From Leucoraja ocellata (Eukaryota), in contig JAWMAR010000001.1 in NCBI GenBank assembly GCA_036785375.1, positions 26,164,001 through 26,228,000 of the forward strand: 64,000 nt of DNA, in the 5' to 3' direction. This document shows positions 12,386 to 43,754 of the stretch, piece after piece. The notes beneath the pieces were generated by a model. The model was not told the DNA's origin. It searched no databases and saw only the letters and a list, made by a program, of their open reading frames with translations. Within the stretch, counting starts at the first letter, position 1; each line of letters opens with the position of its first letter. The translations under genes were made by a program, and so were the position numbers.

Positions 12386-12403
12386 CCCCACCCCCCCATC
12401 AGT

Positions 12404-12431
12404 CTGAAGAAGGGTTTCGGCCTGAAACGTC
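12404..12431 (+). ncRNA. Minimal hammerhead ribozyme motif
   Basis: CUGAAGA-A-GGGU(UUCG)GCCU-GAAA-CGUC; stem II is retained through G-U pairs. Confidence 0.55.
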
Positions 12432-13209
12432 ACCTATTTCCTTTGCTCCATAGATGCTGCTGCACCCGCTGAGTTTCTCCAGCAATTTTGTGTACCTTCT
12501 TCCTGACAGACCCTAGTTGTCATTTTACTATCCTGTATTATTGTTTTGTACTTTCTCTCTAATTTTCTAACTGTCCTCATGTAAGAATTCTACCCTCCCC
12601 AAATGACAGTAAATGCTGGAAATACTCAACAGATCAGGCAGCATCAGCTGAAAGATACACTGAAATTCACTGAAAGATACACTGATATTCAGGTAACTTT
12701 GTCAGTGCTAAAATTCTGAGATAAGGTGGTATGGCAATTTGTGGTAGGAGGAAGGCATGTTGAAAATCTACAATCTTATCACCTATTTTATATCCAGACA
12801 ACTAGCCACATTAGTAGTCTACTTGACACACTGGCATGGTGCATTGAATTGAATAATTTAACATATTCCTTTCCAATGTTTCATGGCTGCTTAATTATTG
12901 AATTGTTTACATGAGGATATTACGTTCTTCTCGTAAAGTTAGATAATCCAGAGGGGATAGTAGGCCACCCAATTACCACTCCGGAACAGGATTTTAGCAA
13001 GAATGTTTGCACGCACAACTTTCAGTGCTCACTAATATGTTCTCAATCTGACATCACACAAAGAGCAAATATGACAAAAAGAAACATGTTGTTTTGAGCT
13101 TTCGATGGCAGTCAGATTAAGAGATATTGACATTTAAAAGAGGAGTCTGGTGTTATAATCCTTGTAAATTCAAGAATAGGTCATGTTATCAGCCCCACCC
13201 CACCCCTCA

Positions 13210-13458
13210 ATCACACCCCAGCAGTATGAGCATTGACTTCTCTAATTTCAGTTTGTCCTTGCTTTCTCCCTCCTTCCCCTCTCCTTCCCAGCTCCCGCAC
13301 AGCCTACTGTCTCCGCCTCTTCCTTTCTTCTTCCTGCCCCTCTTCTTCCACTCCCACATCAATCTGAAGAAGGGTCTCGACCCGAAACGTCACCTATTCC
13401 TTCGCTCCATGGATGCTGCCTCACCCGCTGAGTTTCTCCAGCATTTTTGTCTCCCTAC
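13210..13458 (+). mobile_element. Penelope-like 3' fragment (ORF end MSIDFSNF plus terminal repeat with hammerhead)
   Basis: agtatgagcattgacttctctaatttc is similar to 43451-43480. Hammerhead motif at 13364-13391. Confidence 0.8.
13364..13391 (+). ncRNA. Minimal type-I hammerhead ribozyme motif
   Basis: CUGAAGA-A-GGGU(CUCG)ACCC-GAAA-CGUC: conserved core, 4-bp stem II, palindromic ACGU in place of stem III, GUC triplet. Activity not demonstrated. Confidence 0.65.
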
Positions 13459-13997
13459 TGATTCCTTGCCAATCATTGGTCCTACAGTTAGGAAGGTGGG
13501 ATAGCCTGTTCCAAGAAGGATGAATGTTGGAGTGGAGACTAGTATTTGTTTTTAATTGACTATAACTGTCCAACTACACAGTCCATAATATCTTATGAAA
13601 CCCTTTTTTAATCTTATACTCTCATGCAAAAAAAAGTTGGTAATTGCCAAATAACAGGGCAGGGATCCGTTGAAGTATTTGTGCATTCCTCCACCTTTCT
13701 GATCCTAAACAAGGAGCACTGAAACCCATTACATGTCCTGGCTGGCATAAGTTACTTCACAGACGGGGGGGGGGGGGATGTAGATTTTCAGCTTCATTCT
13801 GCACTAGGCATTACCTTTCAGACTGGATGACAAACTGAAATCTGCAACACTCTCAGATTTTGGAAGATGTTTTAAAAGACACAATTTTACGTCAAGTACA
13901 TCCTACTGATGAAATGAAACTGTCATTTTTTTTTTAATGACAACTCTTTTTGTTCTCCATTATTTTTTAAAGCAAATCAATTGGATTATTTTTTTCG

Positions 13998-14097
13998 AAG
14001 GTAGACACGAAATGCTGGAGTAACTCAGCGGGACAGGTAGCATCTCTGGAGAGAAGGAATGGGTGATGTTTCGGGTCAAGACCCTTCTTCAGACTGA
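13998..14097 (-). mobile_element. Penelope-like terminal repeat with hammerhead motif (14065-14092)
   Basis: Reverse complement reads ctgaagaagggtcttgacccgaaacatc, followed by the shared tail. Confidence 0.75.
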
Positions 14098-14464
14098 ATG
14101 TCTTACATTTAATTTTTGGAACTGTTGTTGGTTAGTTTGCAGAGAGGGAAATTTAAAAAGAAATATCCTGGATATAATCTGAAGCAATTGAAATAAAATT
14201 CCTTGAGCATTGAGTAAATTAATTATAATGAACTTAGAGCATGGAACAGACCAATTAGCATTGTTGCTTGTGCTGATGTTGGTACCCAGAACATGGTTAG
14301 ATAGAGTCAGTAAATGGAACATTGTGTTTGAGAAGTCTGGTTAAGTATTCTTAATATGTAACTAGCAGGAGCGAAAAGTGAGTTTGTGGGTGTGATATAT
14401 TTTGATTTTTGAACAATATTTTTAAAATTTTCATATAAAGATTGACATAAAATATGAGCTCAGG

Positions 14465-15110
14465 GCGTGGAATCCGGAAACAGGCATTTTGGCCCAACTT
14501 GCCCATGGTGCCACATCTACACTAGACCTATCTGTCTGAATTTGGTCCATATCCCCCTGAACCTTTCCTATCCAAGTCTCTTAAATATTGTTATGGTACC
14601 TCCCTCCTCTGCCAGCTCATTCCACATATCCAACTATGTGAAAAGGTTGTTCTCAGGTTCATATTACATTTTCCCCCTCTCAGTGCATGGATAGAAAAGG
14701 TTTAGAGTGATATGGACAAACGCTGCAGGTGGGATTAGTGTAGATGGAGAATCTGTTGGCATGGGCTGTTGGGCTGAAGGGACTGTTTCCATGCTGTTTG
14801 ACTCTAGAACTCGCCTTAAACCTATGTCCTCTGGTTCTTGATTTCCCTACTCTGGGTAAAAGACTGCATTCAGCCTATCTATTCCCCTCAAGATCATATT
14901 CACCGCTATAAGATCACCCCTTAGCCTCCTGGGCTCCAAGAAATAAAGCCCTAGCCTGCCCAACCTTTCCCTATAGCTTAGGCCCTCAAGCCCTGGCAAC
15001 ATCCTCGGAAATCTTCTCTGGACTCTTTCCAGCCTTACAACGTCCCTGCAGCAGGGTGATCAAAGCTCAATACCATATTCTAAATGTGGCCTCACCAACA
15101 TCTTGTTCAA
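14465..15110 (-). mobile_element. CR1 LINE 3' fragment, with a + strand CR1/SINE tail inserted at about 14683-14806
   Basis: Similar to the - strand CR1 at 33560-34100 (cctatgtcctctgg...ccctactctggg...ataagatcacccc). Confidence 0.7.
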
Positions 15111-15299
15111 GACGTAACATATCAGAATTGACAGACAATTGTTTAAAGGTTAAAACAGACTAGGAAAAAAACAAGTCACTTTCTGATTGGCTGCCTACTA
15201 AAAATATATCACAGGGATCAGTACGGGCTCCTCTCAACTGTTCACAGATTATATTAGTGACTTGGCTAAATTGCACTCTTGTCTTTCTATCTAAGTGAT

Positions 15300-16397
15300 C
15301 AACACACAAGTTCCCACACAAGAGATTAGTGCGCAAAATTAGAGCACATGGTATTAGGGGTAAGGTATTGACATGGATAGGGAACTGGTTGGCAGACAGG
15401 AAGCAAAGTGTAGGAATTAACATGTCCTTTTCAGAATGGCAGACAGTGACTAGTGGGGTGCCGCCGGTACTGGGATCCTAGTTATTTACAATATATATTA
15501 ACGATTTAGACGAGGGAATTAAAGCTAGGTGGCAGTGTGAGCTGCGAGGCGGATGCTATGAAGCTGCAGGGTGATTTGGATAAGCTGGGTGAGTGGGCAG
15601 GTGCATGGCAGATGCAGATGTGGATAAATGTGAGGTTATCCACTTTGGTGGCAAGAACAGGAAGGCAGTTTAATGTCTGAATGATGTCAGATTATGAAAA
15701 GGGGAGGTGCAACGAGACCTGGATCTGCTTGTACATCAATCACTAAAAATAAGCATGCAGGAACAGCAGGCAGTGAAGAAAGCTAATGGCATGTTGGCCT
15801 TCATTGCAAGAGAATTTGAGTTTAGGGGCAAGGAGGACCTACTGCAGTTGAACAGGGCCCTGGTGAGACTACACCTGGAATATTGTGTGCAATTTTAGTC
15901 TCCTAATTTGAGGAAGGACATTATTGCTATTGAGGGAGTGCAGCCTAGGTTCACCAGGTTAATTCTTGGGACTGACATATGATGAAAGAATGGGTCAACT
16001 GGACTTATTTTCACTGGAATTTAGAAGAATGAGAGGGGATCTTCGAGAAACATATAAAATTCTTAAAGGTTTGGACAGGCTAGATGCAGGAAAAAATGTT
16101 CCCGATGTTGGGAGAGTCAAGAACCAGGGGTCACAGTTTAAGAATAAGGGATAGGCCATTTAGGACTGAGATAAGGACAAACTTTTTCACCCAGAGAGTT
16201 GTGAATCTGTGGAATTCTCTGCCACAGAAGGCAGTGGAGGCCAATTCACTGGATGTTTTCAAGCGAGAGTTAGATTTAGTTCTTAGGGCTAAGAGATATG
16301 GGGGAAAAGCAGGAATGGGGTACTGATTTTAGATGGCCATTGAATGGATCAAAGGGCCAAATGGCCTACCCCTGCACCTATTTTTCTATGTTTCTAT
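15300..16397 (+). mobile_element. 5'-truncated CR1 (HER1-like) LINE: frameshifted RT C-terminus plus 3'UTR
   Basis: ORF pieces KKANGMLAFIAR..ALVRLHLEYCVQF, LFSLEFRRMRGDL.ETYKILKG and TRGHSL..FFTQRVVNLWNSLP; ctatgtttctat tail. Confidence 0.9.
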
Positions 16398-17021
16398 ACA
16401 AAGCTCTAAGTGGAAGTGAGAAGGATTCAGATAATCTGTAAGCAATAAAGACAAGTGAGCGGATAAGAGGGAGAATAATATAAGAAAATGTGATGTGCAT
16501 TAGTTGAAGGGAAAAAACAATACATTTTAAATGGTGAGAAATGAATAAAAGTTGTCAGACAGATTTTGGATGCTGGTTCATAAGACAGGGGAAAAATGCA
16601 TATAAAGCAAGCCTTTGTTCGAAGAGTATGGGGTCCAAACGTAAGAAAGTCAAGTTGAAATTCTGCAGGATTTTGGTGAGAATTGATTGGTGTCTTGAAG
16701 AAAATTTACAACAGCATGCAGTGTAGATGCACTTGATGGAAGGTTGTCCTCTGAAGAGAGCTAACCTGACATTTATTTATTGAAGTATCCAGGAATGCAA
16801 GATATTGAATATACAAGATTTGAAAAACATTGATGAGATGATGCCAGAAAACTCTCCTCCCAGCTGTTAAAAATAAAACTTGGAGGACATAGTCTCTGGT
16901 ATATCCACTTAAGACCAAAATAACACATTTTATCATGAGTTGCGAATCTTTGATGGATGTTCAGTGCTTTGAAGAATGGCTGATCATCTACACAGGAGTG
17001 TAGTTTAATTGGAATTAATTT

Positions 17022-17135
17022 AGAGATCTAATGTAAGGCAAGCACAGTCCTACTTGCCTTACATTAGATCTCTCAACAACAGTCTTTTATTCAAACGATA
17101 AGCACAATCCTACTTATCGTTTGAATAAAAGACTG
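17022..17135. repeat. Two adjacent perfect inverted repeats (21 and 23 bp) with near-identical 10-nt loops
   Basis: agagatctaatgtaaggcaag-cacagtccta-cttgccttacattagatctct and cagtcttttattcaaacgataag-cacaatccta-cttatcgtttgaataaaagactg. Confidence 0.95.
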
Positions 17136-17584
17136 ATGTTTAGAACAGTCCTGAAGAAATTCCAGTAATGATATCAGAATGGTGTCAAATGTTGAGGAAA
17201 CTGTTGTCAAAAATTGATGCTCAGAAAACATAGAATCAAAGTTGGAATTGTTTCCTAGGTATTAATAGAAGATAACCTCCTTGAAGAAGTGATTTATGAT
17301 TATTTTAACCAGTCTGAAGAAGGGTCCTGAGCCAAAATGTTATCTGTATTTTGTGTCACTTAGAATTATATTTGTTTGAAGAGGAGTAAGGACAGACTTT
17401 TTTTTTCCTCAATAGGTTATCTTTGTCGAGTGGGTGAGATACTGGACTAGTATCCTTTGAATTCCACCACATGAAATTGAATCAGGGACCACTGATAGTC
17501 TATTAGGAAAGCCAGTTTAGTACCTGTATGTGATTCTCATTCCCTGGCACTCAGTTGAATTTTTGGTATAACGGAGTTGCATAG

Positions 17585-17870
17585 GAGCAAAAATCAAACA
17601 GCTGGAGAAACTCAACTGATCAGGCATCATCTATAGAGGGAAATGGACAGTTGACGTTTCAGTTCAAGACCCTTTTTCAGACTGACGGAGTAGGGGGAAT
17701 AAAGCTGGAAAATAAAGGTGTGAGTGGCAAATGATGGGTAGGTGAAGGTGAGTGATTGGCAGATTGATGGAGTGAGTGGCTGGTGAAAAGGAAACAAAAT
17801 GGTGTCAGAAAAGGAAAGAGGAGGAGTGAAATGTAAAGCAGGTGGACGGGAACGGGTGAGGGGAAAGAGG
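17585..17870 (-). mobile_element. Penelope-like terminal repeat, decayed
   Basis: gctggagaaactcaactgatcaggcatcatct...gacgtttcagttcaagacccttttt-cagactga followed by a purine-rich tract. Confidence 0.65.
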
Positions 17871-18129
17871 GTCATTGCCATGTCAGTTACATACAAAAGC
17901 CCAGGGCACGTTTTAAAGATTTAAATTTTAATGGTGTATCTTGATTCAATTTACATTCTAGTGGTATTATTTTGTGTACAATAAAGGCACACCAATATTT
18001 TTTGGGAAGGACCTCTGAATGTAAGAAATCTGGTTTGCAGATAAAATTTCATAACTGAACCTAGTGTAATGAAAGAGATGTGTGCAATCTCCACAGTATG
18101 TCTAACAGGATATCCAAAAGACCATGGTA

Positions 18130-18465
18130 ATGAATGGAATACTTAATGTAGACTTGTCACTGTTATGCAGGAGGTAACATAACATCAGGTTTATGTATCA
18201 GACGTTCATACAAACAGCATGTGGGAAAGATTGGGCAGTCTGTTCACAAGTGATGATCAATGGTCACTTGGTCAGAACCCCAGAGGCAACACCTGGTCTT
18301 TTTCTAAATAGTATCATGGGATTTCTTGTTTCCACCTTATGCAGTTTCACATATTGCACTGATAGTATCACTCAGTATTGCATAAGGGTGTCACCCCAGA
18401 TGTTCATGTTCCAGACTCTCAGGTGAAACTTATACCTATAAACTCCTGAATCAGAAGCAACAACC
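18130..18465 (-). mobile_element. Ancient SINE remnant (Deu-domain/SacSINE1-like)
   Basis: Motifs cactgttatgcagg, caaacagca, ggtcagaaccccag, aaatagtatcatgggattt; similar to 46410-46730. Confidence 0.4.
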
Positions 18466-21124
18466 CTAGAATAAGTCTGAGAAATGTATGTTTAACAGTA
18501 TATTAGGAATATTTATTTTTGTAGAAAAAAGAACCTAATGTAATGGTCGCTTCACTTGACGGACAAGAAATTTGATATTTTCCTTTGTGTTAAGCTAGGA
18601 TGTCCAGTACATGAATAATGTCACAATACAAAGATAAATTGTTTACCTTTCAGGATCTTAAACTCCAGTCATATTTACAGTGGGGAGGACTAGCCATTGT
18701 TAGCACAGCTTTTGCAAAGTTATACGTACTGTTTTCAACATTCACCCTTTCTTCATTTCATTTTAACATGATAAAAGATCAGACAAGAGCACAAAATTAA
18801 TTGGATCCAGTTTAATTTTCCAATCTGCTTTAAAAAAAAAACACAATAAGCTGCGGTCCTTTTCAAATTTCTGGGATTCTGATGAAATTGTAGGTTTCCA
18901 TTGGGTAATGGTGTCAAAACAATTACTTGTACAGTGTACTTCTTGGCCATCCAACATCCATGGGGAATGAGGCAAGAATAGGATTGCATGAGAATTGCAA
19001 AAAGCGTGTAAATAATTTGCCAATTTATATTTAATTTCCTAATTCTTTTAAATAACAATGTTTTGCACTGTGGTTCTTTAAGGTTCCAGAGTATTAATGT
19101 AAAGTTCAGAAAAACAAAATCAAAAGATTGCCTGTACTCACCATTACATAAAGTGCCAAATCTCCAAAGAGAATGGTGCCTATGACTGCCTTGTGTAAAA
19201 TGTAAATAAACTAAAATATCCTTCCACGCTTTTGCAAGAAAAAATAAATAAATCTGAAATTGCTTAATATTCTTAGAAATGCAGACAGCTGCATGAGAAT
19301 TTGGGTGCATAAATATTAGATAAACAAGTTTTATTTTTTACCATCTGACATAAGCTTTAAACTTAAGCTTAAAGTTTAAAGCCCAGGGCACGTTTAGGAC
19401 ATGGAATGTTGAGGACATGGAATGTCTCTCTTATGAGTTTTCCATTTTAAGCTCTGTTTCATAATCTGCATCCCAAACTGGCTAGTGTAAAGCTCTGTCA
19501 GCTTCTGAGGCGATTGGGTGAAATAGTCTTTTGATGATTGTAAATTATGGTTACAGACTAGGGCCATCCTCCTGGTCTGTTAGCAAATTAGCGGCAGACC
19601 TCTGGATTGGTGTGGGACTATGGGAGGGGGGGGGGGTTAAATTAAGATGACATGTTAAAAGAATGTTTGAGGGTGTCTGTATATTCCCAGTTGATTTATT
19701 CAAAAGTGTCTGCTGCAAATTTGGATATGTGTTGTGCATTTGTTTCAAAAGCTTCTTCTGGATGAGTATAGCAGCAGTGTTAACATTCCCAATGGAGCAA
19801 GTCTACCCTAGACTACTTGTGTTTGAATAAAGTTTCGTCCAAGTTTGCCTGAAACTCAGGGATGCTGGAAACATAAATGTTTTTTTTGTGGAGAGATTCA
19901 GATAGGGAGAGTGGAATGGATCATGGCTGTTTTTTCTTTTTCATCTGGTTGAAATTAATCTCTTTGGTTACATTTTTAATAAACTGAGTGGCCCTTTTAA
20001 TTCAGGTGCATGGACAAAAATAGTTATCTTGCAAAAATGCCTTGTATTTAGATTAGTAACAAATTCATTATTTACTGAATATGTGGTTTGGATTTGAATC
20101 TTTAATTGCCTAAGAAATTGTAATCAGTTCTTTATTTGAATGTTTCAGCCTCAACATTTCCAGGAACAATTATTAGTCTTGTAAAGCATCTTAAATGAAG
20201 ATGGCACAGTAGTGTAGCTAATTCTGCATTGTGCTGTGGAGATACTAGGATCAAATTGCAGCTCCTGCTGTCATTTACTCTAAACCATTCCCTTGAAGAT
20301 CAACAGCATCAAGGAGAAGGCTCAGAGTAAACGATAGCCCGGCAAACAGCACTCGGCATAGCCACCTAGTCATGACTTCAAAAAACAGGGAAACATTTAT
20401 ATAATTCAAATTTGAATTGATGATCGGACAAACCTTTGTTAGAAAGATTTATTTTTAAATACATTTTTTTAAATTAACTTTTCCGATTTTCTTTTCTGTG
20501 TAAAAAACGAAAAGAATTAAAGTGGAGTTGCTTGACAGGCTGGTGAGACACGAAGATTGGACCTTTGCAGTCTGTTTGTTCCTGATTAGATTGTCTGGCA
20601 TTCTGAATGGGGTGAATTCACCAAACATAGTTGCCGCCTCTAAATGCTCAAGGTTACATTCTATTATACAGCATAAATGAGTTACAAGATAGTGGTTACT
20701 CTGAGCGATACGAGTGTGCAAGTACTTAGTGTCATTGTGACACTATAAAAATCTGAACTTCCCAGTAGAAAATAGGTCTAAAAATGATGAACCTTGTGAA
20801 ATCCAAAGAAAGAAAACATTGCTGTATGATAAATTTAGCATTTTATTCTCTTTGGCGAAAGTACTATGAGCTCTAATAAGATAGGTCAAACCCCAACCTC
20901 ATTGAAAGGCGGAGATTAATTGATACAAATTTCTGAAAATGCACTGCATTTTCATGATCTAGAACAAATGGATCTGACTCTTGATTTTAATGAATTATTG
21001 GTAGCTTGTCTCTTAAAACCAAAGACAGTGGTTGAAGTGAGGTGACCCATTAAGTTATATCCAGGAAATTTTTTGATCATTTAAAAGTTGAATGCATATG
21101 CTAATTAGGTGAGATGGTCTGAAC

Positions 21125-21162
21125 CAAAGATCCTATAGCAAAGCTTTGCTATAGGATCTTTG
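21125..21162. mobile_element. 38-bp perfect palindrome flanked by an 8-bp TSD (minimal MITE)
   Basis: gtctgaac|caaagatcctatagcaaagctttgctataggatctttg|gtctgaac. Confidence 0.8.
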
Positions 21163-24475: not shown

Positions 24476-25371
24476 TAAGGGGGCCATACGCAATTTCTTC
24501 CCGTAAAAGTGAAAAAAAAGTACAATTTTAATAAGAATAGACACAAAATGCTCGAGTAACTCAGCAGGTCAGGCAGCATCTCTGGAGAAAAGAAATAAGT
24601 GATGTTTAAGATCGAGACCCTTCTGCTTACACAATTTAAATAAATCTGTACTTAAAATTCAATATGACCAATAAGAAAGAATGCATTCTGCCTTGACTCC
24701 AGTAAATTAATTTAAAAAAGCGCACAAATTGGGAAATGAGAGCTGATATTTACACTGGGAAAGATGAATGCAGGGAGGGTACATAAATGCTGGCTTTTTG
24801 CAGTTCTATATATAACTCTCTTCCAATATTGGACATGTGAATTTGGCTAAAATTAGTTTGTGGATGACATCATGAAATACGCTTTTACCATGAACTTATC
24901 AGTCATTATTTTTGGAGGAGTGTACTTTTCATAGATCTGATTATGTAGAGCTGCTCAGTATTTTTTTTATGCAGCTTTATAAGCTTAACATGGCTACGAT
25001 TTTTGGCATGGCATCCTTTGTGTCAAGCCTTCATTTCCATCTATCTCCCCAGGACACTGAGGGAGAAAGAGAATGGATCTCTCATTTAGGATGACTCTGC
25101 TAATTATTATAATGCTAAAGTTGAATGGACTTTGAGTTTGGAAACATCACTCACTTCTGGCTGTCCATTACTTTTTTTTTCCTTTTCATTACTGGTCGGA
25201 ATCTCATAAATAGCTGCTACCAGAGACAGAAATTAATACAGGTAACGCCCCAAAAAATTAAGCCACGATGGTATTGACACCAAAAGAGACGGTGTAAACC
25301 CAAAGAGATGATAGTAAATTTCTCTATTTACCTTGGGGATGCACTGTAACAAGTGACAGATTTATAATGTG

Positions 25372-25560
25372 CATAACTCAGCAGGTCAGGCAACATTTCT
25401 GGAGAACATGGACTGGTGACATTTGGAGTCGGGTCCCTTCTTCAAACTCTTTCCCAACCTGAATGGTTGCCTATCCATGTTTACTGTTGCCTGATCTGCT
25501 GAGTTACTCCAGCATTTTGTTTCTTTCTTTGGTAAACCAGCATCTGCAGTTCCTTGTGTT
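25372..25560. mobile_element. Penelope-like fold-back remnant
   Basis: taactcagcaggtcaggcaaca... is inverted with ...tgttgcctgatctgctgagtta; degenerate hammerhead at about 25418-25445. Confidence 0.65.
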
Positions 25561-30634: not shown

Positions 30635-30886
30635 GGTAGCCAGGAGCCAGCAGCCACCCCAGACGCTATGGTACAGCCGTATGCTACAGTTCCATTCCCT
30701 GCCCCCCCTCCTCCTCCTCCTCCACAGAATGGAATTCCAACAGAATACACTGTTCCACACACTCAGGACTACACAGGTCAGACGCCAGTCCCAGATCATA
30801 GTCTGAACATCTACGCATCCAGTCAGACCCTTGGGGAACAGAGTGGCACAATTGCCAATGTGCAGCCTGTATCTGGAACCGCCACA
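30635..30886 (+). CDS. RBFOX2: RBFOX2 common N-terminal exon ([16 protein letters not shown]...PQNGIPTEY...SGTAT), 252 nt
   Basis: Pyrimidine tract plus ttcag| acceptor, 84 open codons, ACA|gtaagt donor. The motifs [15 protein letters not shown] and PHTQDY are RBFOX2-like. Confidence 0.95.
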
Positions 30887-32553: not shown

Positions 32554-32658
32554 GTAGACAAAAGTGCTCGATAAACTCAGCGGGTGCAGCAGCATCTATG
32601 GAGCGAAGGAAATAGGCAACGTTTCGGGCCGAAACCCTTCTTCAGACTCTTCAAAATT
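32554..32658 (-). mobile_element. Penelope-like terminal repeat with hammerhead (32618-32645) and 14-bp flanking direct repeat
   Basis: tgataaattcacag at 32540-32553 and 32659-32672. Reverse complement reads ctgaagaagggtttcggcccgaaacgtt. Confidence 0.8.
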
Positions 32659-33453: not shown

Positions 33454-33559
33454 GCTGGAGGATTGTAGTTGTACACTTCAATATCCAAACACACTACCCC
33501 ATCAACACCCATTCTGATTCGCTTGCTGTTTCACAGTTCTGAGCATTTTCAGCTTTTCG

Positions 33560-34095
33560 TCGAGTCATAGAGTGATACAATGTGGGAATAGGCCCTTAGG
33601 CCCAACTCGCCCACACCGCTAACAATGTCCCAGCTACACTTGCCTGGTCCATATCCCTCCAAACCTGTCCTATCCATATCCCTGTCTAACTGTTTCTTAA
33701 ATGATGGGGTAGTCCCAGCCTCAACTACCTCCTCTGGCAGCTTGTTCCATACACCCACCACCCTTTGTATGACAAAGTTACCCCTCGGATTCCTATAAAA
33801 TCTTTTCTCCTTCACCTTGAACCTATGTCCTCTGGTCCCCGATTCCCCTACTCTGGGCAAAATACTCTGTGCATCTACCCGATATATTCCTCTCATGATT
33901 TTGTATAGCTGTATAAGATCTCCCCTCATCCTTCTGTGCTCCATGGAATAGAGACCCAGCCTACTCAACCTCTCCCTATAAGCTCACACCCTCTAGTCCT
34001 GGTAATATCTTTGTAAATATTTACTGAATGCTTTCAAGCTTGAAACCATGTTATCTTTTCTATGACATGGTGCCCAGAACTGAACACAATATTAT
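33560..34095 (-). mobile_element. CR1 LINE 3' fragment
   Basis: ORF 33549-33968: LGLYSMEHRRMRGDLIQLYKIMRG..TRGHRFKV..QRVVGVWNKLP. Confidence 0.9.
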
Positions 34096-35510
34096 AAACA
34101 TTTTGTTGCCTAGGCTCAACAGAATATTCATTTTTTTAATTGGAGATTGCTAGTTCTACCAGCAGTTCTCTCCCTACTTATCTATGTTAACCATTGGAAT
34201 ATAATTCCAGAAAAATATCCGAATTTTTGAAGCAGTGAAACATTTCTAAACATGCATTTGTTTTTATTTCTAAGCTGCTGATATTTGGTGGATAATATTC
34301 TCGGTAGTGTAGAAGTATTTTATAAAAATGTAGTTGGAGTCCTTCACTGGCCATATGTTGTATTCTAGAGATAGATCTGCCGTTGTACAGTATTCATGTT
34401 TTTGGGGAACTTGGAACAAACTCAATTTCTACAATAAACTGATTCTACAAATGCCACGTACTGAAGAAAAGTGATGTAGCTTTGTTATTCAAATACTTTT
34501 TAACAGTTTGAGGTTCGAGTTAGAAAGGGACGCTACTGCGCGGCAGGATTATGAATTAACTTTGCCTTTCTTATCGGCACAATGACACTCGTAAATGTGT
34601 CATCAGAAAGCAGCTGAGCCCAGGAAAGTGTGTGTTCATCTTTCACACCTGTGGGGTTGCTGGTGCTCTATAGTTACATACACAGTTCATCTGTTTGGTG
34701 ACATTCAGTTGAACAAGAATGGAAATTAAATTGCAACTCCGGATTTGGAGGAACAAATACCAGTGGGATTGACAAGTTCCTCTTTAGCATTCTCTGTTAT
34801 GTCACTGTTGCTAGTCCTCTAGACCTATCAATATTATGTCTTTACATCCTGTGTACTTCATACCACTCTTCCAAAGTAAACTAAATCTAAGCACATTCGG
34901 GTATCATCTTTTCAGTGAGAATCTTGATAACTACCAGTCAGTTTCGAGCTAATCCAAGTAATTATGTTGGTTCAAGATTTGAATGCTGCTTTAGAAATAA
35001 TTGAATTTCTTCTTAAATTGAGTTGTGTTCATGCATGTATTGACCCAATTAATTCATGTTGTTAAATACCTTTTGTTTGTGAGTATGTACGGTGTGTCTT
35101 TAGGGAGCCTTGGCCATTGCAAATTTCACCAGGTCATCTTTGGTAGCTTGATATGATGAAACATGAAAGTGACAGTGGTGAAGTAGGCATGTGCATTCTT
35201 CGTCGTTTGGGCCAGTAAAGTAGGAAAGTTTTGTTGCAACTGTATAAAACTTTAAAGGAAGGATGTGGAAGCTTTGGAGAGGATGCAGAAGAGATTTACC
35301 AGGATGTTAGTTGAATAGGAGTAGTGTATTGGCTTAACCGAGTGGTTGAATAAACTTGGATTCTTAGGCTGAAGTGTCAGAGGCTAAGTAGCAAACTGAT
35401 AAGTCTGTAAAATTATGAATAGGGTAGTTAGTGTAGAAAATAGTGTAGAGAACTTGAATAGGGTAGTTATGCAAGAGTTTTTCTCAGGGTGGAAATGTCA
35501 ACTACTAGAG

Positions 35511-35651
35511 GGAAGACAAAAATGCTGGAGAAACTCAGCAGGTGAAGCAGCATCTATGGAGCGAAGGAGATAAGCAATGTTTCGGGCCGAAACCCTTCTT
35601 CAGACTTCAGGTGCTCAACCATTGAGTTTCTCCAGCATTTTTGTCTACCTT
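35511..35651 (-). mobile_element. Penelope-like fold-back with hammerhead (35576-35603), adjoining a CR1 fragment (about 35210-35510)
   Basis: gacaaaaatgctggagaaactca ... tgagtttctccagcatttttgtc terminal inverted arms. Confidence 0.75.
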
Positions 35652-36296
35652 GGGTGTTTAGAAATGGTCAGCAGCGATGTTTTCCAATGTCTTGTTAAGC
35701 TTTATATGAATAATGGTTAGTTGCGCTAAATATGGTTCAGTTTTCACTTGATTGCAGGCACTTTACACAGGGTGTTGTCCAAACGTTTTGAAGGTGAGCA
35801 AGGCTAGGCATAGAATCCCTCAAGTGGGCTGCACAGAGTTATACAGAAATTAAAATGAGGTTCCTTCAGGTAAAACGCTAAAGTTCTGTGTTTAAAAATC
35901 AAGACTTTTCATATAGTATATGGAAATAACTTGGATACAGCAATATCCCAGGATTTCTCCCCTCCTCGTATTGTTAGCGTTCACAGTAAAACATGTCATA
36001 GTTAAGAGTCAGCATTCTTAGAACATAAAGGAAGGGGGGAATTTGTACAAGTGCAGAATTTTTTGAAGAAACAAATGTACCTACAGACCTGTGATAAATG
36101 GCCCTGTTGTAAACCAGATACCAATTTGTAGTTCCTGACTGGCTCAAGATAGTTTTGTAACTACAAATATTGTTCATTTGGAAATAAGAAATATTTAATT
36201 GTGCATCCATAATCATTTACTGTATTAACAGAAATGTTTTGATTGAAATATTCAGCAGCAAAATTGTCTTCTTTCCTTTTTTTCCTATTCTTTCAG

Positions 36297-36437
36297 CAGA
36301 CAGATGAAGCAGCACAGACAGATGGACAACAAACACAAATCACAGAGAGCAGTGAGAGCAAACCCATACCTAAACGGCTTCACGTTTCCAACATTCCCTT
36401 TCGATTCCGTGATCCCGACCTCAGGCAAATGTTTGGG
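36297..36437 (+). CDS. RBFOX2: RBFOX2 exon with linker and RRM start/RNP2 ([12 protein letters not shown]...[23 protein letters not shown])
   Basis: tttcag|CAG tandem acceptor, 141 nt, GGG|gtaaga donor. [22 protein letters not shown] is the invariant Fox-1 family RRM start. Confidence 0.97.
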
Positions 36438-38769
36438 GTAAGAATGAGCTTTTACTGGAACTCTGTTCAAAGCTTCATAGAAAAAAATATTTCCCATTAA
36501 TGTTCCCTCAGAAAAGGAATTTATGAGCAATGCTTGGTGCAAAAAGGTTGGTGAAAGATTTTTAAAACGGGGATTGGAATAATATAAAGAGTAGTTCCTT
36601 ATAACTTAAATTTCATCTCTAGAGCTTGGGGTGCAGTCTGCATGGAACAGCGAAATAAGAGGGGGAAAATGGAAATTAATTTGGAAGATATCTTTCCAAT
36701 TCTGTGCAATTGAAATTCAACAGTGCAAAATAACTGGTTATCGATCTGTTTATATGTGAACTTTAGCACTATTTCTGACCCTTTGATTTATTCCTATACA
36801 ATTTACTGTATGTTGATTGCACGTTAGTTATTAAATTAACAAGTGTGGTTCTGAAGCTGTTTAGTGTAACAATACCAAAATGCTAGCGGTATGTTTGCAT
36901 CTGCAGCTATCTTCTGTCGCAAACTTTGTTGGGATGTACTCTTCATCTCATGACCTCCCAACAAATAAAAATGAAAAGTATAATACATCATTCAATGTCA
37001 GTGATTATTCTCCTTTCTAACCCTATAGCTGAAATCCCTCATGATTGGGATCATCACCTATGCACCACTGATATTTTTTAATTTCTTTAAAATTTGATTT
37101 TGCCGCATTCCCTTTTCCTACTCTGTAAGATTCTGTGGGTGTCAAAAGCTTTCTTATACCCCATCCAACTAGGAATAGACACATGAGCCATTGTATTATT
37201 CGTAAGTGAGATGGACAAGGGGAAGAGCACAATATAATCATTTTGGCACAAGAGATCGCTGTTCAGCCCAGCATTTTGCTGTCCCTGTGTGCAGCAATTT
37301 ATTCCAATTCTTTCTCTGCAATTCTTTGAAAGCATCGGTTAGTTCTGTTTCCAATATTCTTACAGCAAAGAGATCCAAATTATAACACTCTTAACATATA
37401 AAGTTGTCCCTAACCATCTTTCTTGTAGCTTGTAGTACTTAAAATATATGCCCTGATGCTTGACCTATCCATTAATGGAAACAGACTTTCTTTATACCCT
37501 CTCATGATAAAAACAGATCCATGAAAACTCCCTTCTAATTTTGTTGCTCTAATAACAACCCCAGCTTCTCCAGTCTAAAATACTGGTAAATCAGGCCAGG
37601 GTGAGAATACTGTATCCAGCTTTGGTCCACACCACCACACAAAGTAACTCTATTTTGGAGAAAAAAGGAAGATTCACTAGAATGATCCCCACTAGATTTT
37701 TAATTTCTGTTTTGAGATGAATATGAAAAATTGCTGAGCAAAATCATCATGATTGAAATTGTATTTGATGCTCAGTTTTACAAACAATGAACTTTAATAT
37801 CAAAGGATACAGTGAGGCATGTAAGATGGTCTTAAATGTTTGATCTTTCCCTCCAGCAGATGAAGTGCATTCAAGTAATTTTTTATTTGCTATATTTGAA
37901 TTTACATTCTGGATAGCCAGTGGCAGTGAGTTGCCCTATTAATCTAGCTACTTAGCCTAGCAGCAGATTCACAGACCCATGAAAAGTTTGCTGTTGGAAT
38001 AATGGAACCACATTTAGCAGCATGAACCCCATGAACCAGAATGCCAGTCACCAAGAATCTGAATCAAAGTGGAGACAGTGTAAAACAGTAATTTGCATGT
38101 ATTGTGCACTTTCAATGCATGAAAATGTCACAAAACGCTGACAGTCATAATCAGAAAAGGAAAAAAAAAAAGATAGCCAGGGCAAAGAAAGAAGTAGTGC
38201 AAAACTGTGTTGTCAATGGTGGGAGGAAAAAGTGCGGAGTCCAAGCAGTAAAGTAGTTGGAAGAACAGCATTCCGTAAGCTGAAGGATGGTTTTTAGAGC
38301 GAGGAAAGGCCAAATAAATGAACATAAATGTTGAAATTATACTTTTGGGACCAGAGGTTCAAGAGTCCATTGTCAGTTAACATATTTTCATGTCCGTTTG
38401 TGCATGGTCTTCTGCCAGTTTAGTAGAATCCATGTATCAAAATCTGAGCAAATCAGTGGCTCATTAACATCATATATGGTTTGAATTGCACATAGCAAGG
38501 AATCTTAACCATTATGATTTTACATCAAATTAAACATAATATGGGGTGAATTAAAGTTTTAATTTTGGCCCTAGAAAATTCCAAATAAATTGGTATCCTG
38601 TGCTGCCTTGGTATCCGAGGGGAAATTTGTCACTGCTGCAGCAGAAATAAGAGGAAGGCTGGGTAGGCTTAGCAGTAATGTTTCACCTTGGAGATGAATT
38701 AAAATCCATAATGAAAACAAAAAATACTAAACGGATCTATTCCCATCTGTGGGAAGAGAACCCGTCAAT

Positions 38770-39270
38770 GCTTCAGATCAGAGATCCCTCTTCAGAAGCA
38801 AAAAAGAGACAAATGAAACTTGTTAAACTGCAGTGGGGGAGAGGGATGACTCTGATAGGGTAAAACCAGGATGGCCGTGGAGAAAAGCTGTAAACAAGGT
38901 TATCTGGTCAGTGAGTGAATGGGAGCAGTTAGAGGGTGAGAAACTAACCTGGACAAAAAAAATGTGGGAGTTGGGAAATACAGAACACAAGGACAAGCCC
39001 AGCAAGTTAGGATGGACATTTGATCCATGCTCAGAGAAAAATGGGAAGGGAGTAAAAACAAGCTGGGCTGGTATTATGGGTGACAGACATAGATTCGAGA
39101 AATAAAGTTACTTGAAGTTGTAGAATCGTTATTGAGTCCAGAAGGCTGCAATGTGTGCAGATGGAAAATGAGCTTGCATGGGACTCACAATGCCACTAAA
39201 GGAGGGAGACTGCAAAGCAATAGGTCGCAGTGGAATGAGGAATTGAAGTGGCAAGCATTAGGATCATTTT
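38770..39270 (-). mobile_element. Old Penelope-like fragment
   Basis: agttacttgaagtt...ttgagtccagaaggctgcaa...aaaatgag resembles the reverse of the Penelope ORF end at 43410-43483. Confidence 0.45.
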
Positions 39271-39883
39271 TGTCGCGGATTGATTTTCAGGAATTAAAAC
39301 CTGTACCCGATTACATCAGTTGAAATGAAGGCATGTTACAAAATTGTTTGATTCCCAAATCCATAATGGGTTCAGCCTCTGATCTGTGCAGTGGTGAGTT
39401 GCTGCTGGTCGAAATAATAAGTTAAGTTTGGTACCCTGAAAGGCCCTGGCACCGGTCACTTTCCAGTAATTCCACTCAAAAGTCTATGTCCGTGAATAAG
39501 ATGCAGGATCAGGTTTCTCCCTTGGGGTCATATAGCCATGAAAGCTTGCTGAATAAATCTTTCAAAAAGGCTGAATAGTGAGTCGTTAAATATAGTCAAG
39601 GCCAAGTTGGACCTATGGATTATAGGTAATGAAAATTATGGGCATCAGGCAGATAAGCGAACTTTAGAGTAATTACCAGATTTGCTATGATCTTATTGAA
39701 TGGTGTAGGAGATAAGAGAAGCCATATGGCTACTCCTTTATCTTTTAAGTTACTTACGGAAATCTGATATTGACATCTATTCCAGTAGGAGTCAGCATCT
39801 TTAAGTCAATGTATAAAGTAGAACTGAGCAGAATTTTGAACTGACATTTGTACTAATAAATTCTTATTTTATTTTCTCTGCAG

Positions 39884-39937
39884 CAATTTGGTAAAATCAT
39901 AGATGTAGAAATTATATTTAATGAGCGTGGCTCAAAG
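39884..39937 (+). CDS. RBFOX2: RBFOX2 54-nt RRM exon (QFGKIIDVEIIFNERGSK)
   Basis: Branch-like tactaat at 39851, pyrimidine tract, ctgcag| acceptor, AAG|gtaagc donor. Too short for the ORF track but matches the Fox RRM. Confidence 0.97.
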
Positions 39938-42800
39938 GTAAGCACATGTTTTTTAATGTTTCTATGGTTATACTAATTGCTGTATATAATTGCTAAAGTT
40001 GAACTTGTTGGCTGTTTTAAACTATTTCCAGCTTGTGGCATTTTCCAAAGTTGATCCTTTTCACTGATCATCTTCATAATAGGATAGGTTGTAGTTATCA
40101 GCGTCTCCCCGTCCTCGTAATCATCATTGTATATAATGGCAACATTTTCTCAATGATGTATCCATGAAGCATTCTATTGTTTTTATTTATCCCCCTATTT
40201 GTCCTTTATTAATTCCTCTTCACTGAAACAATGTTCACAATCCAGAATTGTGGTTGTTTATCGAGTCTTTCACCTGGTTGCCTTTACTAATTATTTAGTA
40301 ATATGTGCAGCTAAGGCCCTATTTATTTGGCAATACGTGATACCAACGATCAATGTGTTGATTCCATCTGTGCGTGGAAACGAATTGGTCGTGTTTAATG
40401 GTGACAGAATTTGGAAAATGATGCTTGGCTGGAATCAGTTTCAGGTCACAAAACTATGCTGATTAAGTAAAAATACTTAAAAATAAGTTTAAGATTGTTT
40501 TATTATTGTCCTATTCTACTGCCATTATTCTGCTGCGCCTTCTTTCCCTTAAAGTAACATTTATCATATTACCCATTTATATTTACTATTGTGGCGTAGA
40601 ATTCATCTCTCTCCTCATTCCTTTAAAGACTGCTAATTTTTAAATTATATACTACTCTAATGTCAAGTTCCCAGTTTTATTTCAATTCTCCAGTTTATCT
40701 GGAAAATTTTCAGAAAAGAAATTCTCAAGGTGAACGTTCTTCTTTTGTTCTTTTGAGAACTAGCTGACAGGCTTTTTAATCATAGAGCTGCCATTAAAAG
40801 CCTTTTTAACTACAGAGCAGTTTAGAGATGCTCAAAAAAGAGAATGGCTCTGTGCTTTAAGGCAACTTAATTATTCTACATTGTACTTTTTTTTTCCATT
40901 ACAACCCGTTTTAAATTGATAGATGAGCACATGCTCTTGGTTCCTGCAAACCTTGAACATTGCAGCAACACTGGAAATGAGGGTCACTGAGGTGGGCTGC
41001 CACTCAGTAAACAACGTGGAAGCTTCATCTAGTTCTCTATCCCTTGCCATAATTGAACTGACTAGAAAAGGAAAGGTATTAACCTCCAACCTAATAAATG
41101 GCTTTGTGAAGACTGCAACTACTGCAGTTTTCTCACATTTACTTTATGAGCAGAGTGAGAGCGGTGGCAGCAACCCTGCAACAACTGCAGATGCAGCAAA
41201 TCATATGTCACCTTGTTAACCTTGTGTTTCTATTCATGGACCTTCAGTGGTGTTGAGGGAAATACCATATCAGTAAGCAACGTGATAACTAGCTCAGCAT
41301 CAAATTCCAAACTTGCCTTTGGTGCTCACAGCCCACTGAATGTAATATTAAATGGATCTCTAAAGATGTAAGCTGCATTTTTTAATTGGTAAAAGCTTAA
41401 AAGCAAAACAATGGTGGTCTTCTGAGCTAGCCATTAGTAGGAAAAGAGTCACGGTGGTATACCACTAGTTAGCAATATTGTCATTTTTGAGGTGATGGGC
41501 TTATGGTGTGACAATCCTGGGATACATCTGAAAGTATGCATGCCCACTGGGAGAACTAGGAATGCTGTTGATTGTCATGGGCCATCAGTATGCTTGTATT
41601 TGTAAACCAGGCTTAAATTTAAATAATTGTTGTAGGAAGGAACTGCAGATGCTGGTTTAAACTGAAGATGGACTCAAAATGCCAGAGTAACTCTAGCAGG
41701 ACAGGCAGCATCTATGGAGAGAAAGAATAATGTGCTGTTAAATAACTAGTGCAGATAAAACAGTATACTAGAAAAGGGAGCAATTTCACTTGGAATAAGG
41801 ACTGAGTATTAAGTGTATTTAATGTATTTGTAATGCTGGAAAATCAGCTTAATGTTTCTTAATGATCTATCACAATTACCATTGCAGTCAAACAAAGGTT
41901 TGGGATGGAGAGAGATGACCATATGTGATATCACTTATGATAATCTGATTTATTATTTATGAAAATGTTATGATTGCAGCATTTCATGGAATGTTTTTAA
42001 AGAGAGAATCTTCCATTTCATTGTCCTTTGCAAGAAGTTTAAAAACAAAATGTAAATACAAATTCACTCCAAAAAAAAAAGCTGCAGATGCTGACAAAAG
42101 AACAAAATGCTGGAACTACTCAACAGGTCACGCAGCATCGTGGATTTTTTTTTTTTTAAATCAACATTTCTGGTTGATGGCTTTTCATCGATACAACCTT
42201 CTCTCCCCACACATGCTGCTGACCTGCTGTAGAGTTGTTACCGTTTTTAATTTCTTCTTGCTTGGTTGTTTATTTCAATTCAAATCAATTCAATGATTTC
42301 TGGAGTCCACTGCTGAATTCCCGATCTGCCTTTTCCCATCAATCCTACTAGACTGTGCTTGTGGACTATCTAGTAATAGTCAAAAGCTGAAGCAAATAGA
42401 TTCATTTTTCTAACAGTAGATGCCCATTTTTTGGAGGGGGGAAGAGGGAGATCTTGCCGTTTTCTTCTGTGACGTGTTTAGGCTCAGTTATCATAGAGCT
42501 GTTACAATCATTGCAGACATTCTGTTGTTCTACCCAGCCTGAGCCACAACCCTCTGAGCTGTCACAGCTTTAAGTGGAATAGCATGGTTTTGAATGTATA
42601 AAATTACTTGTGAATTATTCTCTCTCCCAACATTCATTTTCCATTCTGATCTCATACTAAATTTAATAATCACCTTTGCATTTACCAATGATTTCAAGTG
42701 ACTGTACAGGCCATAAAAATGGGATATTGCCTTTTTTTAAATGACATCGCATTGAAATATATTTTGATGTTTATTTTCAGTATGTTTAGGAAGGAACTGC

Positions 42801-43754
42801 AGACACAAAAAGCTGGAGTAACTCAGCGGGTCAGGCAGCATCTCTGGAGAGAAGGAATTGGTGACGTTTTAGGTCGAGGCCCTTCTTCAGACTAGTTAGG
42901 GAAAAAGTGAACAAGAGATATAGACAATGATGTAGAGAGATAAGAACAATGAATGAAAGATATGCAAATAAGTAACGATGATAAAGGAAACTGGTCATTG
43001 TTAGCTGTGAAAATGAGAATCTGGTGCAATTTGGGTGGGGGAGGGATAGAGAGAGAGAGGGGGGGAATGCCGGGGTTACTTGAAGTTAGAGAAATCAATA
43101 TTCATGCCTAAACCTCCTCCCTCGACTGTCCATGGACCCCAACATATTATTCAGGTTAGCCAGAGGTTCCCATGCACCTTCTCCAACCTCATCTATTGTA
43201 TCCATTGTTCAAGATGTAGACCATCGGAGAGACCAAACGTAGACTGGGCGTTGTTTCGTTGAACACTATTGCTCAGTCTGCCTGAACCAACCTGATCTCC
43301 CGGTTGCTAAACACTTTAATTCTCCTTCCCATCCCCACGCTGATCTTTCTGTCATAGGTGCCCTCCATTGTCAGAATTAGGCTAAACGCAAATTGGGGGA
43401 GCAGCATCTCATATTTCGCTTGGGCAGCTTGCAGCCCAGCCCAGCCCAATGGTATGAATGTTGATTTCTCTAACTTCAAGTAACCCCGGTATTCCCTCTA
43501 TCCATCCCCATCCAAGTCGCACCAGCTTCTCATTTTCACCCAACAAACAGCTAACAATGGCCTGTTTCCTTTATCATCGGTACTTTTTTGCATATCTTTT
43601 ATTCGTGGTTCTTATCTCTCTACATCATTGTCTATATCTCTCCTTCCCCTTTTCCCTAACCAGTCTGAAGAAGGGTCTCGACTCGAAACGTCGCCCATTC
43701 CTTCTCTCCAGAGATGCTGCCTGTCCCGCTGAGTTACACCAGCTTTGTGTGTCT
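42801..43754 (+). mobile_element. Penelope-like element: decayed GIY-YIG endonuclease C-terminus plus terminal repeat, preceded by an inverted terminal repeat
   Basis: 43130-43480 encodes broken QVSQRFPCTFSNLIYCIHCSRC..IGET..LPVAKHFNS..EQHLIFRLGSLQP..MNVDFSNF. Arms 42801-43108 and 43451-43754 are inverted copies. Confidence 0.85.
43665..43692 (+). ncRNA. Minimal hammerhead ribozyme motif
   Basis: CUGAAGA-A-GGGU(CUCG)ACUC-GAAA-CGUC. Confidence 0.55.

Follow-up and report, generated by a model that had tools for sequence, protein, structure and literature searches.

Minimal hammerhead ribozymes occur in the pLTRs of metazoan Penelope-like elements (PLEs) (Cervera & de la Pena 2014, PMC4209133). 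These motifs combine CUGANGA plus one extra base, a G-started stem II of 4 bp with a 4-nt loop, GAAA-CG-UH with a palindromic 15.2-16.2 segment, a short stem I and a pyrimidine-rich run upstream; they lie directly 3' of the PLE ORF, mostly as truncated solo copies. Published examples from PLEs cleave inefficiently, dimers included, or depend on the element's own protein (PMC4209133, PMC11167929). Neptune-clade EN+ PLEs (Craig et al., 10.1101/2021.04.23.441226) have a C-terminal GIY-YIG domain with a Cys-rich linker ahead of it and a hammerhead in the terminal repeat, and show 5' truncation, an inverted truncated partner and an optional 30-40-bp tail. The Poseidon PLE of Anolis carolinensis, from another clade, is intact and biochemically active, and its hammerhead, with a terminal tail signature, cut only when protein was added (PMC11167929). 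Domesticated amniote intronic hammerheads, RECK among them, and the split Clec2 ribozyme are described in PMC6155905 as canonical, with a full stem I, deep orthologous conservation and a transcript-sense position in host non-coding RNA. Finally, non-LTR retrozymes are PLE-derived, carry type-I hammerheads and have been reported in one chondrichthyan genome (10.64898/2026.07.22.740005).

The window analyzed here (i.e., the whole 64-kb stretch of skate DNA) very probably holds decayed terminal-repeat pieces of a Neptune-type PLE, spread across the introns of RBFOX2, whose minimal hammerhead likely served RNA processing of the element and, within the pre-mRNA of the host, is likely almost without activity. 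The family shares the sequence and positional traits listed above for PLE motifs, and its nearest listed counterpart is the Neptune motif of Acropora digitifera (Fig. S3, PMC4209133). Unlike that published set, it comes from a cartilaginous fish, a group absent from Table S1 and Fig. S3; its stem I of 2 bp is at the short end, against mostly 3-5 bp (2-bp stems also occur in Fig. S3); its 3' flank repeats the 3' strand of stem II, which creates a competing hairpin; and its density seems far above the 4,000-9,000 motifs of coelacanth and Xenopus (PMC4209133). The Neptune layout recurs in the window, with the Cys motif of the linker decayed, but there as broken 3' ends without RT domain or full-length copy, and for this reason the clade assignment is drawn from the endonuclease region, which suggests a Neptune-type element with Nematis and Naiad as alternatives. 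The skate relics and Poseidon share a hammerhead with a terminal tail signature, and RNA-seq reads end at the cut site in neither. Skate copies also lie in host non-coding RNA in transcript sense but, unlike RECK-type and Clec2 ribozymes, are minimal, multi-copy, decaying and found in both orientations; a RECK-type domesticated hammerhead was rejected, as it needs a stem I of ~6 bp with loop contacts and the skate stem I has 1-2 bp. Likewise, a non-LTR retrozyme was rejected, as it requires head-to-tail tandem arrays, with at least two successive units that each bear a hammerhead, and the window holds no such array of the unit.

The surrounding gene is a skate RBFOX2-like one encoded on the + strand, as the first-pass annotation had it, and exon and protein matches identify the following parts:

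6615-6641, + strand, alternative first coding exon of 9 codons; matches the N-terminus of shark isoform P0020 at 9/9, then GT
30635-30886, + strand, exon of 84 codons; 100% identity to skate RBFOX2-like protein
36297-36437, + strand, exon with RRM start; top PDB match RBM9/RBFOX2 (E 3e-13)
39884-39937, + strand, RRM exon
51323-51415, + strand, RRM exon (RRM_1, E 3e-8)
57934-57994, + strand, post-RRM exon

Every motif copy lies outside these exons. The sense pair at 12404 and 13364 had been placed in the first intron, which holds for the isoform beginning at exon 6615-6641 only; the other RBFOX2 first exons searched for do not lie in the 64-kb window. RNA reads of a relative are present in bin 6400-6666, which spans that exon.

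At most two mismatches allowed, the motif search returned 9 matches against a shuffle mean of 0.65 (none of 100 shuffles reached 9), including exact ones at 12404 (+), 13364 (+), 32618 (-) and 43665 (+). The surrounding ~100-nt repeat family has 23 fragments at E<=0.01 in 64 kb, two of them marginal (E about 0.008), and none in 5 shuffles. The element is very abundant: DNA depth was 0.9-9 million in repeat bins versus 8-18 on unique contigs. All seven copies placed exactly by the first-pass annotation, and its degenerate ones at 17314 (+), 17653 (-) and 42863 (-), were present in the search; those it put near 25418 and 60297 were located too, heavily decayed. It lacked the copy at 24601-24628 (-), the inverted pair at 9022-9182, a piece at 38730-38796 (-) and tail-only pieces. 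The principal features are:

9022-9182, head-to-head pair, both members 5'-truncated (- strand 9022-9100, + strand 9100-9182); the + member continues into a ~35-nt tail
12291-12498, + strand, PLE terminal-repeat remnant 1: pyrimidine tract with CAG end, hammerhead, ~70-nt downstream part
12404-12431, + strand, minimal hammerhead, sense, core complete; ACGU palindrome kept, 2-bp stem I, G10.1-U11.1 pair; cleavage predicted after 12431
13253-13456, + strand, PLE terminal-repeat remnant 2; 76% identity with remnant 1 across 214 nt
13364-13391, + strand, minimal hammerhead, sense, core complete; stem II perfect, stem I just 1 bp; predicted cut after 13391
13997-14097, - strand, inverted copy carrying motif 14065-14092, which lacks the palindrome (CG>CA)
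17314-17341, + strand, decayed motif; G12A, no palindrome
17653-17680, - strand, decayed motif; G8A
24601-24628, - strand, decayed or truncated motif
25418-25445, - strand, decayed motif; inverted pair with 25453-25526 (+)
32618-32645, - strand, minimal hammerhead, core and palindrome complete; antisense to RBFOX2
35576-35603, - strand, motif without palindrome (CG>CA)
42801-43108, - strand, inverted 5'-truncated PLE arm; motif 42863-42890 with G12A; 84% identity over 317 nt with arm 43451-43754
43665-43692, + strand, minimal hammerhead, sense, core complete; wobbles in stems I and II; within a ~300-bp inverted repeat
60295-60322, - strand, heavily decayed motif

The Penelope-like origin proposed for these repeats is upheld by two ORF remnants upstream of motifs and by the same motif in related PLEs. 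The remnants are:

43083-43500, + strand, broken 3' end of a PLE ORF, GIY-YIG region; frameshifts and stops; matched by 135/150 PLE-like proteins
60605-61475, - strand, broken 3' third of a PLE ORF; decayed zinc-finger motif in the linker, GIY-YIG endonuclease; interrupted by 6 in-frame stops

The 43665 copy follows its remnant by 165 nt and the 60295-60322 copy by 283 nt; no PLE ORF lies between terminal-repeat remnants 1 and 2. A Pfam scan of the decayed ORF query itself gave no match, and the query retrieved 370 relatives at E<=0.001. Among 10 relatives scanned, GIY-YIG was detected in 8, RVT_1 in 6 and both in 5, mostly slightly below the Pfam curated cut-off. In the CCHH set of the GIY-YIG domain, C177, C180 and H224 are invariant (alignment A1), and the Cys motif of the linker is present in the 8 aligned relatives; the window copy retains the last Cys of this motif and has Tyr in place of Cys twice. 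The same 28-nt minimal type-I motif was found 78-207 nt past the ORF in 16 of 55 related PLE loci, versus 1 of 55 on the reverse strand. When 4 window motifs were aligned with 5 related ones, the rows being picked by a descriptor that requires stems, compensatory changes on both sides were seen at 5 of 7 pairs, and 0/500 shuffles reach the score. This shared position places the skate family in the class published in 2014, to which it adds a Neptune-type family of very high motif density and, as matters stand, no new regulatory layer.

Parsing of the copies bore out a minimal type-I hammerhead with a palindromic ACGU suited to a dimeric stem III. The core (C3-A9, G12-A15.1, U16.1, H17) is complete in the copies at 12404, 13364, 43665, 32618, 14065 and 35576. 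All 12 copies have an extra A between A9 and 10.1, with the 10.1-11.1 pair being G-C in 8 and G-U in 4, including 12404. The ACGU palindrome (15.1-16.1, in the place of stem III) persists in 6 of 10 parsed copies and was lost in 4 through CpG-type change. The three sense copies once called intact are so in their cores; their stems carry G10.1-U11.1 (12404), a 1-bp stem I (13364) and wobbles in stems I and II (43665). Stem I is short as noted before, at 1-2 bp rather than 2-3 bp, with the third pair broken in 11/12 copies. G12 is retained in 7/12 and lost in 5/12, the palindrome CG is retained in 18/24 cells, and CpG-type changes make up 16 of 52 substitutions. The core was not significantly better conserved than the neighbouring repeat (120/132 vs 513/596, P=0.15). 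The earlier remark that stem II pairing is kept does not amount to covariation: among window copies all 4 pairs vary one-sidedly, and 196/500 shuffles score as high. An Rfam covariance-model search gave 7 matches at E<=5, none of them to a hammerhead family; as minimal motifs have no stem III, the assignment is not weakened by this.

Together, these observations suggest a history in which target-primed insertion with heavy 5' truncation would have preserved, in most cases, just the final 100-300 nt, often beside an inverted partner, and CpG-type transitions after insertion would have destroyed the palindrome and G12. The inverted truncated pairs (9022-9182, 25371-25526, 42801-43755) and the tails after 9100, 9631, 25485 and 41729 agree with the published PLE layout (10.1101/2021.04.23.441226). 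Where intact elements lie in tandem, a motif would pair with its neighbour via ACGU and cut after GUC, probably with help from protein. The RBFOX2 sense copies are predicted to misfold or to pair with inverted copies, and tethering of exons would tolerate any rare slow cut. For the inverted duplexes, folding predicts -155, -160 and -473 kcal/mol and a pairing probability of about 1 for the cores, so that the whole core of each sense copy would pair with a nearby inverted partner. Slow intronic hammerhead cuts are reported to leave splicing unblocked (PMC2995048, citing Dye 2006, Fong 2009).

We consider unlikely a reading in which the sense copies, should they affect RBFOX2 at all, do so without catalysis, either by RNA structure, with 100-300-bp duplexes as editing substrates, or by splicing signals, with the pyrimidine tract plus CAG ahead of the motif as a cryptic acceptor. 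The predicted duplexes speak for it. The three sense copies are preceded by sequence with a pyrimidine fraction of 0.85-0.92, CAG stands at 12400-12402 and 43661-43663, and in Drosophila virilis Penelope an intron end adjoins stem I (PMC4209133). However, copy 2 carries CAA instead of CAG, none of the 15 joints listed of a longer set (4013 more) led from the 6641 donor into a repeat copy, and no A>G excess of RNA over DNA was seen (18 and 12 vs 21), two tests that family reads swamp.

It is improbable that the family is weakly toxic as a whole, with sense copies occasionally cutting host transcripts (in cis or trans dimers, through copy number or PLE protein) and being purged or their RNA lost, RBFOX2 being incidental. 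In the stranded run X22, antisense family reads were 1.8-3.75 times commoner in 7/7 repeat bins, which are not independent (about 3:1), an excess that A-richness in the flanks of 12 copies fails to explain; hammerhead-bearing copies in the window number 4 sense vs 10 antisense (P=0.18); and cleavage with protein help has been demonstrated for the anole PLE (PMC11167929). The strand bias, however, comes from this single library, the second being unstranded. Intronic transposons without ribozymes are generally antisense-biased too (PMC3517506), and the sense strand has a splice-acceptor-like pyrimidine tract plus CAG. Of the hammerhead-bearing copies, 3/4 in sense but 1/10 in antisense have both core and palindrome complete (Fisher P=0.041, in a post hoc test), contrary to purging by cleavage. 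The RNA ends expected at the GUC sites did not appear as read-end pile-ups in 2 RNA runs of a relative despite several hundred-fold family depth, a weak test given libraries not designed to retain cleavage ends.

A bolder form of this proposal, which we hold to be quite improbable, is that skate genomes contain hundreds of thousands of Penelope hammerheads whose sense copies, dimerised or assisted by PLE protein, cleave the pre-mRNAs of the host in vivo, producing the ~3:1 antisense excess, and that the RBFOX2 sense pair is a surviving, possibly co-opted site trimming a master splicing regulator. If sense cleavage were true, the long genes of cartilaginous fish would bear a pervasive load of transposon ribozymes, from which domesticated intronic ribozymes could also arise. 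At a density of about one fragment per 3 kb, a skate genome is well powered to ask whether PLE minimal hammerheads cut in vivo.

Co-option of 12404 and 13364 for cis-dimer cleavage and attenuation of nascent RBFOX2 RNA, as the first-pass annotation had suggested, is very improbable: both copies are sense, ~960 nt apart, with complete cores and matching ACGU, intact copies are enriched in sense, and amniotes have conserved intronic hammerheads (PMC6155905), but the two copies carry different stem lesions, the gap has a chance probability of 0.09-0.17, and the dimer would have just 7 inter-copy pairs (2+4+1 bp) spanning ~930 nt. Relative to the free ensemble of 12380-13470, the constrained dimer is predicted to be less stable by +30 to +37.5 kcal/mol, and the inverted copy at 13997-14097 is predicted to pair with either sense copy over the 28 motif bases minus one. 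Predicted active-dimer energies are -1.5 to +0.1 in window copies versus -6.3 to -14.9 in 5 relatives; the model, which omits Mg2+, tertiary contacts and protein help, discriminates weakly, since it also disfavours the active dimer in the relatives (+4.5 to +14.3 vs +11.1 to +15.3 in window copies). Unique intronic RNA depth, though sparse, is near 0 from about 10.1 kb, upstream of copy 1, so a step at the motif would not be visible.

A contig piece of a relative joins the tail of copy 2 to its flank, which suggests a shared copy and would favour co-option, but the inverted copy at 14065 seems equally old there (both 26-letter matches, below the 31-letter threshold). Against the reading of decayed, near-inert PLE pieces count the sense excess of complete copies, the unexplained antisense excess in X22 and a kinetic window, as the inverted copy at 13997 would be transcribed ~540 nt later than copy 2. 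Contigs of relatives, which break at the repeats and do not give the distance between units, show tail-to-head joints.

The hammerhead feature is real, and it is a skate addition to the known class of minimal hammerheads carried by Penelope-like elements (PLEs). With at most two mismatches, the 28-nt motif was matched nine times in the window (100 shuffles averaged 0.65 matches), and four matches (12404+, 13364+, 32618- and 43665+) were exact, which upholds the motif family proposed by the first-pass annotation. The motif forms the head of a dispersed repeat of ~100 nt. Searched with a profile of this repeat, derived from an alignment of 12 copies, the window yielded 23 fragments at E<=0.01 (two of them marginal) and five shuffles yielded none. 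Nine fragments lie on the plus strand and 14 on the minus strand (P=0.40), and the 14 of 23 that extend into the hammerhead region are divided into four and ten, respectively (P=0.18). Summed contig depth in two relatives was 0.9-9 million for repeat bins versus 8-18 for unique contigs; this measure is not equivalent to copy number and, combined with the density in the window (one fragment per ~3 kb), suggests a family of hundreds of thousands of copies. The proposed check with hammerhead covariance models came out negative, as an Rfam scan of the window returned no hammerhead family and seven matches, none at gathering score. The DNA pattern of the skate motif had no matches in metagenome contigs or in viral contigs. 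Several copies (14065-, 17314+, 32618- and 35576-) start only 3-5 nt upstream of C3, the start of the core, and contigs of a relative share a common boundary at that copy start, where the flanks are mixed and loose ends occur at 14095. The family may be truncated preferentially at this point, or may include a short non-autonomous form.

Two motif copies sit downstream of broken ORFs on the same strand, 60605-61475(-) and 43083-43500(+). Of 150 related proteins, 146 match the first of these ORFs and 135 the second, and the ORFs end 283 and 165 nt, respectively, before C3. The first was read with X at six stops. This decayed ORF yielded no families in a Pfam scan and no match among longer proteins in a word-indexed search, and a full HMMER search retrieved 370 relatives at E<=0.001. 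Among ten relatives scanned, GIY-YIG was found in eight, RVT_1 in six, and both in five in RT-then-endonuclease order, the matches being mostly slightly under curated cut-offs. In the relatives, the endonuclease is also preceded by a Cys motif, which is decayed in the window copy; according to Craig et al. (10.1101/2021.04.23.441226), a Cys linker marks Neptune and Nematis PLEs. That source also describes PLEs as truncated at the 5' end, accompanied by inverted partners and ending in a tail of 30-40 bp, and all of these traits are present in the window. A third PLE 3' end, very decayed, was observed at 38730-39274(-), where a marginal repeat match (38730-38796) accompanies a weak ORF match (39131-39274; 1 of 150 queries). 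In addition, an annotated 272-aa skate protein (record P0122) fuses a DUF4518 piece to the endonuclease region of the same PLE, perhaps as an exonised fragment or a gene-model artefact.

An independent check was made on 80 metagenome loci encoding related endonuclease regions, 55 of which have at least 300 nt downstream. A minimal hammerhead occurs 78-207 nt past the endonuclease match on the same strand in 16 of these 55 loci (reverse strand, 1/55), with a 28-nt layout identical to that of the skate motif. In an ungapped cross-family alignment of four window motifs and 5 of the 19 matching loci, two-sided changes were found in five of seven pairs and the covariation score was reached by none of 500 shuffles, a result that leans towards structure because the rows were picked by a stem-requiring descriptor. 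The commonest motif among the related loci agrees with the Neptune motif of Acropora shown in Fig. S3 of PMC4209133. On the features tested, the skate motif is a member of the minimal PLE hammerheads described by Cervera and de la Pena and, as a putative ribozyme, would work like these. No tandem retrozyme arrangement is present in the window, and the skate copies depart from canonical domesticated intronic hammerheads in the features tested (PMC6155905, in part). No cartilaginous fish was found in the accessible portions of Table S1 or Fig. S3 of PMC4209133. Our literature search found no work on skate PLE hammerheads, and other surveys may cover sharks or the same family; a 2026 preprint (10.64898/2026.07.22.740005) describes, in the part available, retrozymes in one chondrichthyan. 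PMC4836649, PMC3365414, PMC544870 and the Squalomix preprint held nothing decisive.

The host gene was identified from exon 30635-30886, which is 100% identical to an RBFOX2-like protein of the skate Amblyraja radiata, followed by other cartilaginous fish (87-99%) and then bird RBFOX2. For exon 36297-36437, RBM9/RBFOX2 was the best match among solved structures.

RBFOX2-like exons mapped with fetched proteins
6615-6641, plus strand, 9-codon exon
30635-30886, plus strand, exon
36297-36437, plus strand, exon
39884-39937, plus strand, exon
51323-51415, plus strand, exon
57934-57994, plus strand, exon

All of these exons are on the plus strand, so the plus-strand motif copies are sense to the transcript, as the first-pass annotation had held; every repeat copy lies outside the exons. 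Two shark isoforms have the 9-codon exon as an alternative first exon, and three other N-termini sought in the window were not found. At 36294-36299 the exon start has a tandem acceptor (CAGCAG), which fits fetched isoforms with and without one Gln. Raw counts over the whole window for a hexamer that we take to be the RBFOX binding site are 38 on the transcribed strand and 25 on the other.

Within the RBFOX2 introns the hammerhead copies are likely inert. Six copies retain the full core and four of them also the ACGU palindrome. The claim of three intact sense copies holds for their cores and breaks down in the stems, where each has a flaw: G10.1-U11.1 in 12404, a 1-bp stem I in 13364, and wobbles in both stems in 43665. 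Stem II pairing had been described as preserved; within the window all four of its pairs vary one-sidedly and covariation equals that of shuffles, which does not bear this out. In 11 of 12 copies the third pair of stem I is disrupted. Majority-matching cells make up 120/132 of the core columns versus 513/596 downstream (P=0.15), G12 is kept in 7/12 copies, the palindromic CG in 18/24 cells, and CpG-type transitions account for 16 of the 52 substitutions. We infer that such variation is what neutral decay of inserted copies would produce. A longer or bulged stem I was discarded, the best distal duplexes reaching only -3.0 to -4.8 kcal/mol. The bases just past the cut site (12432-12435, 13392-13395 and 43693-43696) duplicate the stem II 3' strand, which gives the family an intrinsic hairpin that competes with stem II and opens it. 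In the best folds, the hammerhead stem II forms in none of the three sense monomers and in both relatives tested.

The idea that copies 12404 and 13364, ~960 nt apart, dimerise in cis and cut the nascent transcript is not favoured by modelling. Such a dimer requires 2+4+1 inter-copy pairs (7 bp) around ~930 nt, and imposing it lies +37.5 kcal/mol above the free ensemble for both sites or +30.1 for one site, in a folding model with no Mg2+, tertiary contacts or proteins. For isolated strands, the active dimer is disfavoured by +11.1 to +15.3 here; in five related motifs used as a control it is also disfavoured, by +4.5 to +14.3, which makes the cost less telling. The dimer's own energy is -1.5 to +0.1 here and -6.3 to -14.9 in the five. 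Inverted copies are predicted to compete strongly with the hammerhead fold: 13997-14097(-) would pair either upstream copy (-155 and -160 kcal/mol), 42801-43108(-), transcribed before 43665, would pair the 43665 copy over ~300 bp (-473 kcal/mol), and cores inside these predicted duplexes are paired at a probability of about 1. A gap of <=960 nt has a chance probability of 0.09 (three copies) or 0.17 (four copies), and no PLE ORF was found between the two copies. In published work, a minimal PLE hammerhead did not cut as a monomer and cut weakly when dimeric or trimeric (PMC4209133), an anole PLE hammerhead cut only with its own protein and had 0 RNA-seq reads ending at the site (PMC11167929), and splicing persisted with a slower intronic hammerhead and was blocked by the fast HDV ribozyme (PMC2995048, reporting Dye 2006 and Fong 2009).

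Two raw RNA runs of a related species (roughly 5% of the reads of one and 1% of those of the other) were mapped on 6400-14400. No read-end pile-up was seen anywhere in this region, including the predicted cut sites at several hundred-fold family depth; this is a weak test because these libraries do not keep cleavage ends. Between 90 and 96% of mapped reads came from other family copies, and a depth step at the motifs is not judgeable because from about 10.1 kb onward the unique depth in the intron is already close to zero; beyond the entries listed, the mapping has 342 differences, 4013 joints and 4121 loose ends. Contig pieces with overlaps of 26 and 25 letters, below the 31-letter rule, suggest that a relative has both copy 2 (13364) and the inverted copy.

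Two observations count against reading the copies as inert relics. First, core and palindrome are complete in 3/4 sense versus 1/10 antisense copies (P=0.041 in a post hoc test on small numbers); adding the requirement for G10.1-C11.1 and a 2-bp stem I leaves one complete copy per strand. Second, in a stranded RNA run of a related species (X22), whose unique reads are on the plus strand, family reads over 8803-14142 were antisense to the element 1.8-3.75 times more often in 7/7 repeat bins, which draw on one shared read pool. Internal oligo-dT priming as the cause is not supported (flank A content 0.31 versus 0.32, 12 copies). Cleavage is one candidate cause among others, because intronic transposons are commonly antisense-biased through termination signals (PMC3517506, in part) and the sense strand before the motif carries a pyrimidine tract and CAG.

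Pyrimidine tracts ending in CAG, one base before the core, resembling a splice acceptor
12400-12403, plus strand
43661-43664, plus strand
17681-17684, minus strand
60323-60326, minus strand

In D. virilis Penelope, an intron ends at the position equivalent to this CAG before the hammerhead (PMC4209133, in part).

Two adjacent perfect hairpins of 21 and 23 bp were observed at 17022-17073 and 17080-17135, with near-identical loops and inner bases and unrelated arms; Rfam gave them only sub-threshold miRNA matches. Another repeat with ORF remnants is present as fragments at 4186-4513, 14811-15033, ~15160-16400 and 33549-34040, which presumably resemble the 3' ends of CR1-type LINEs.
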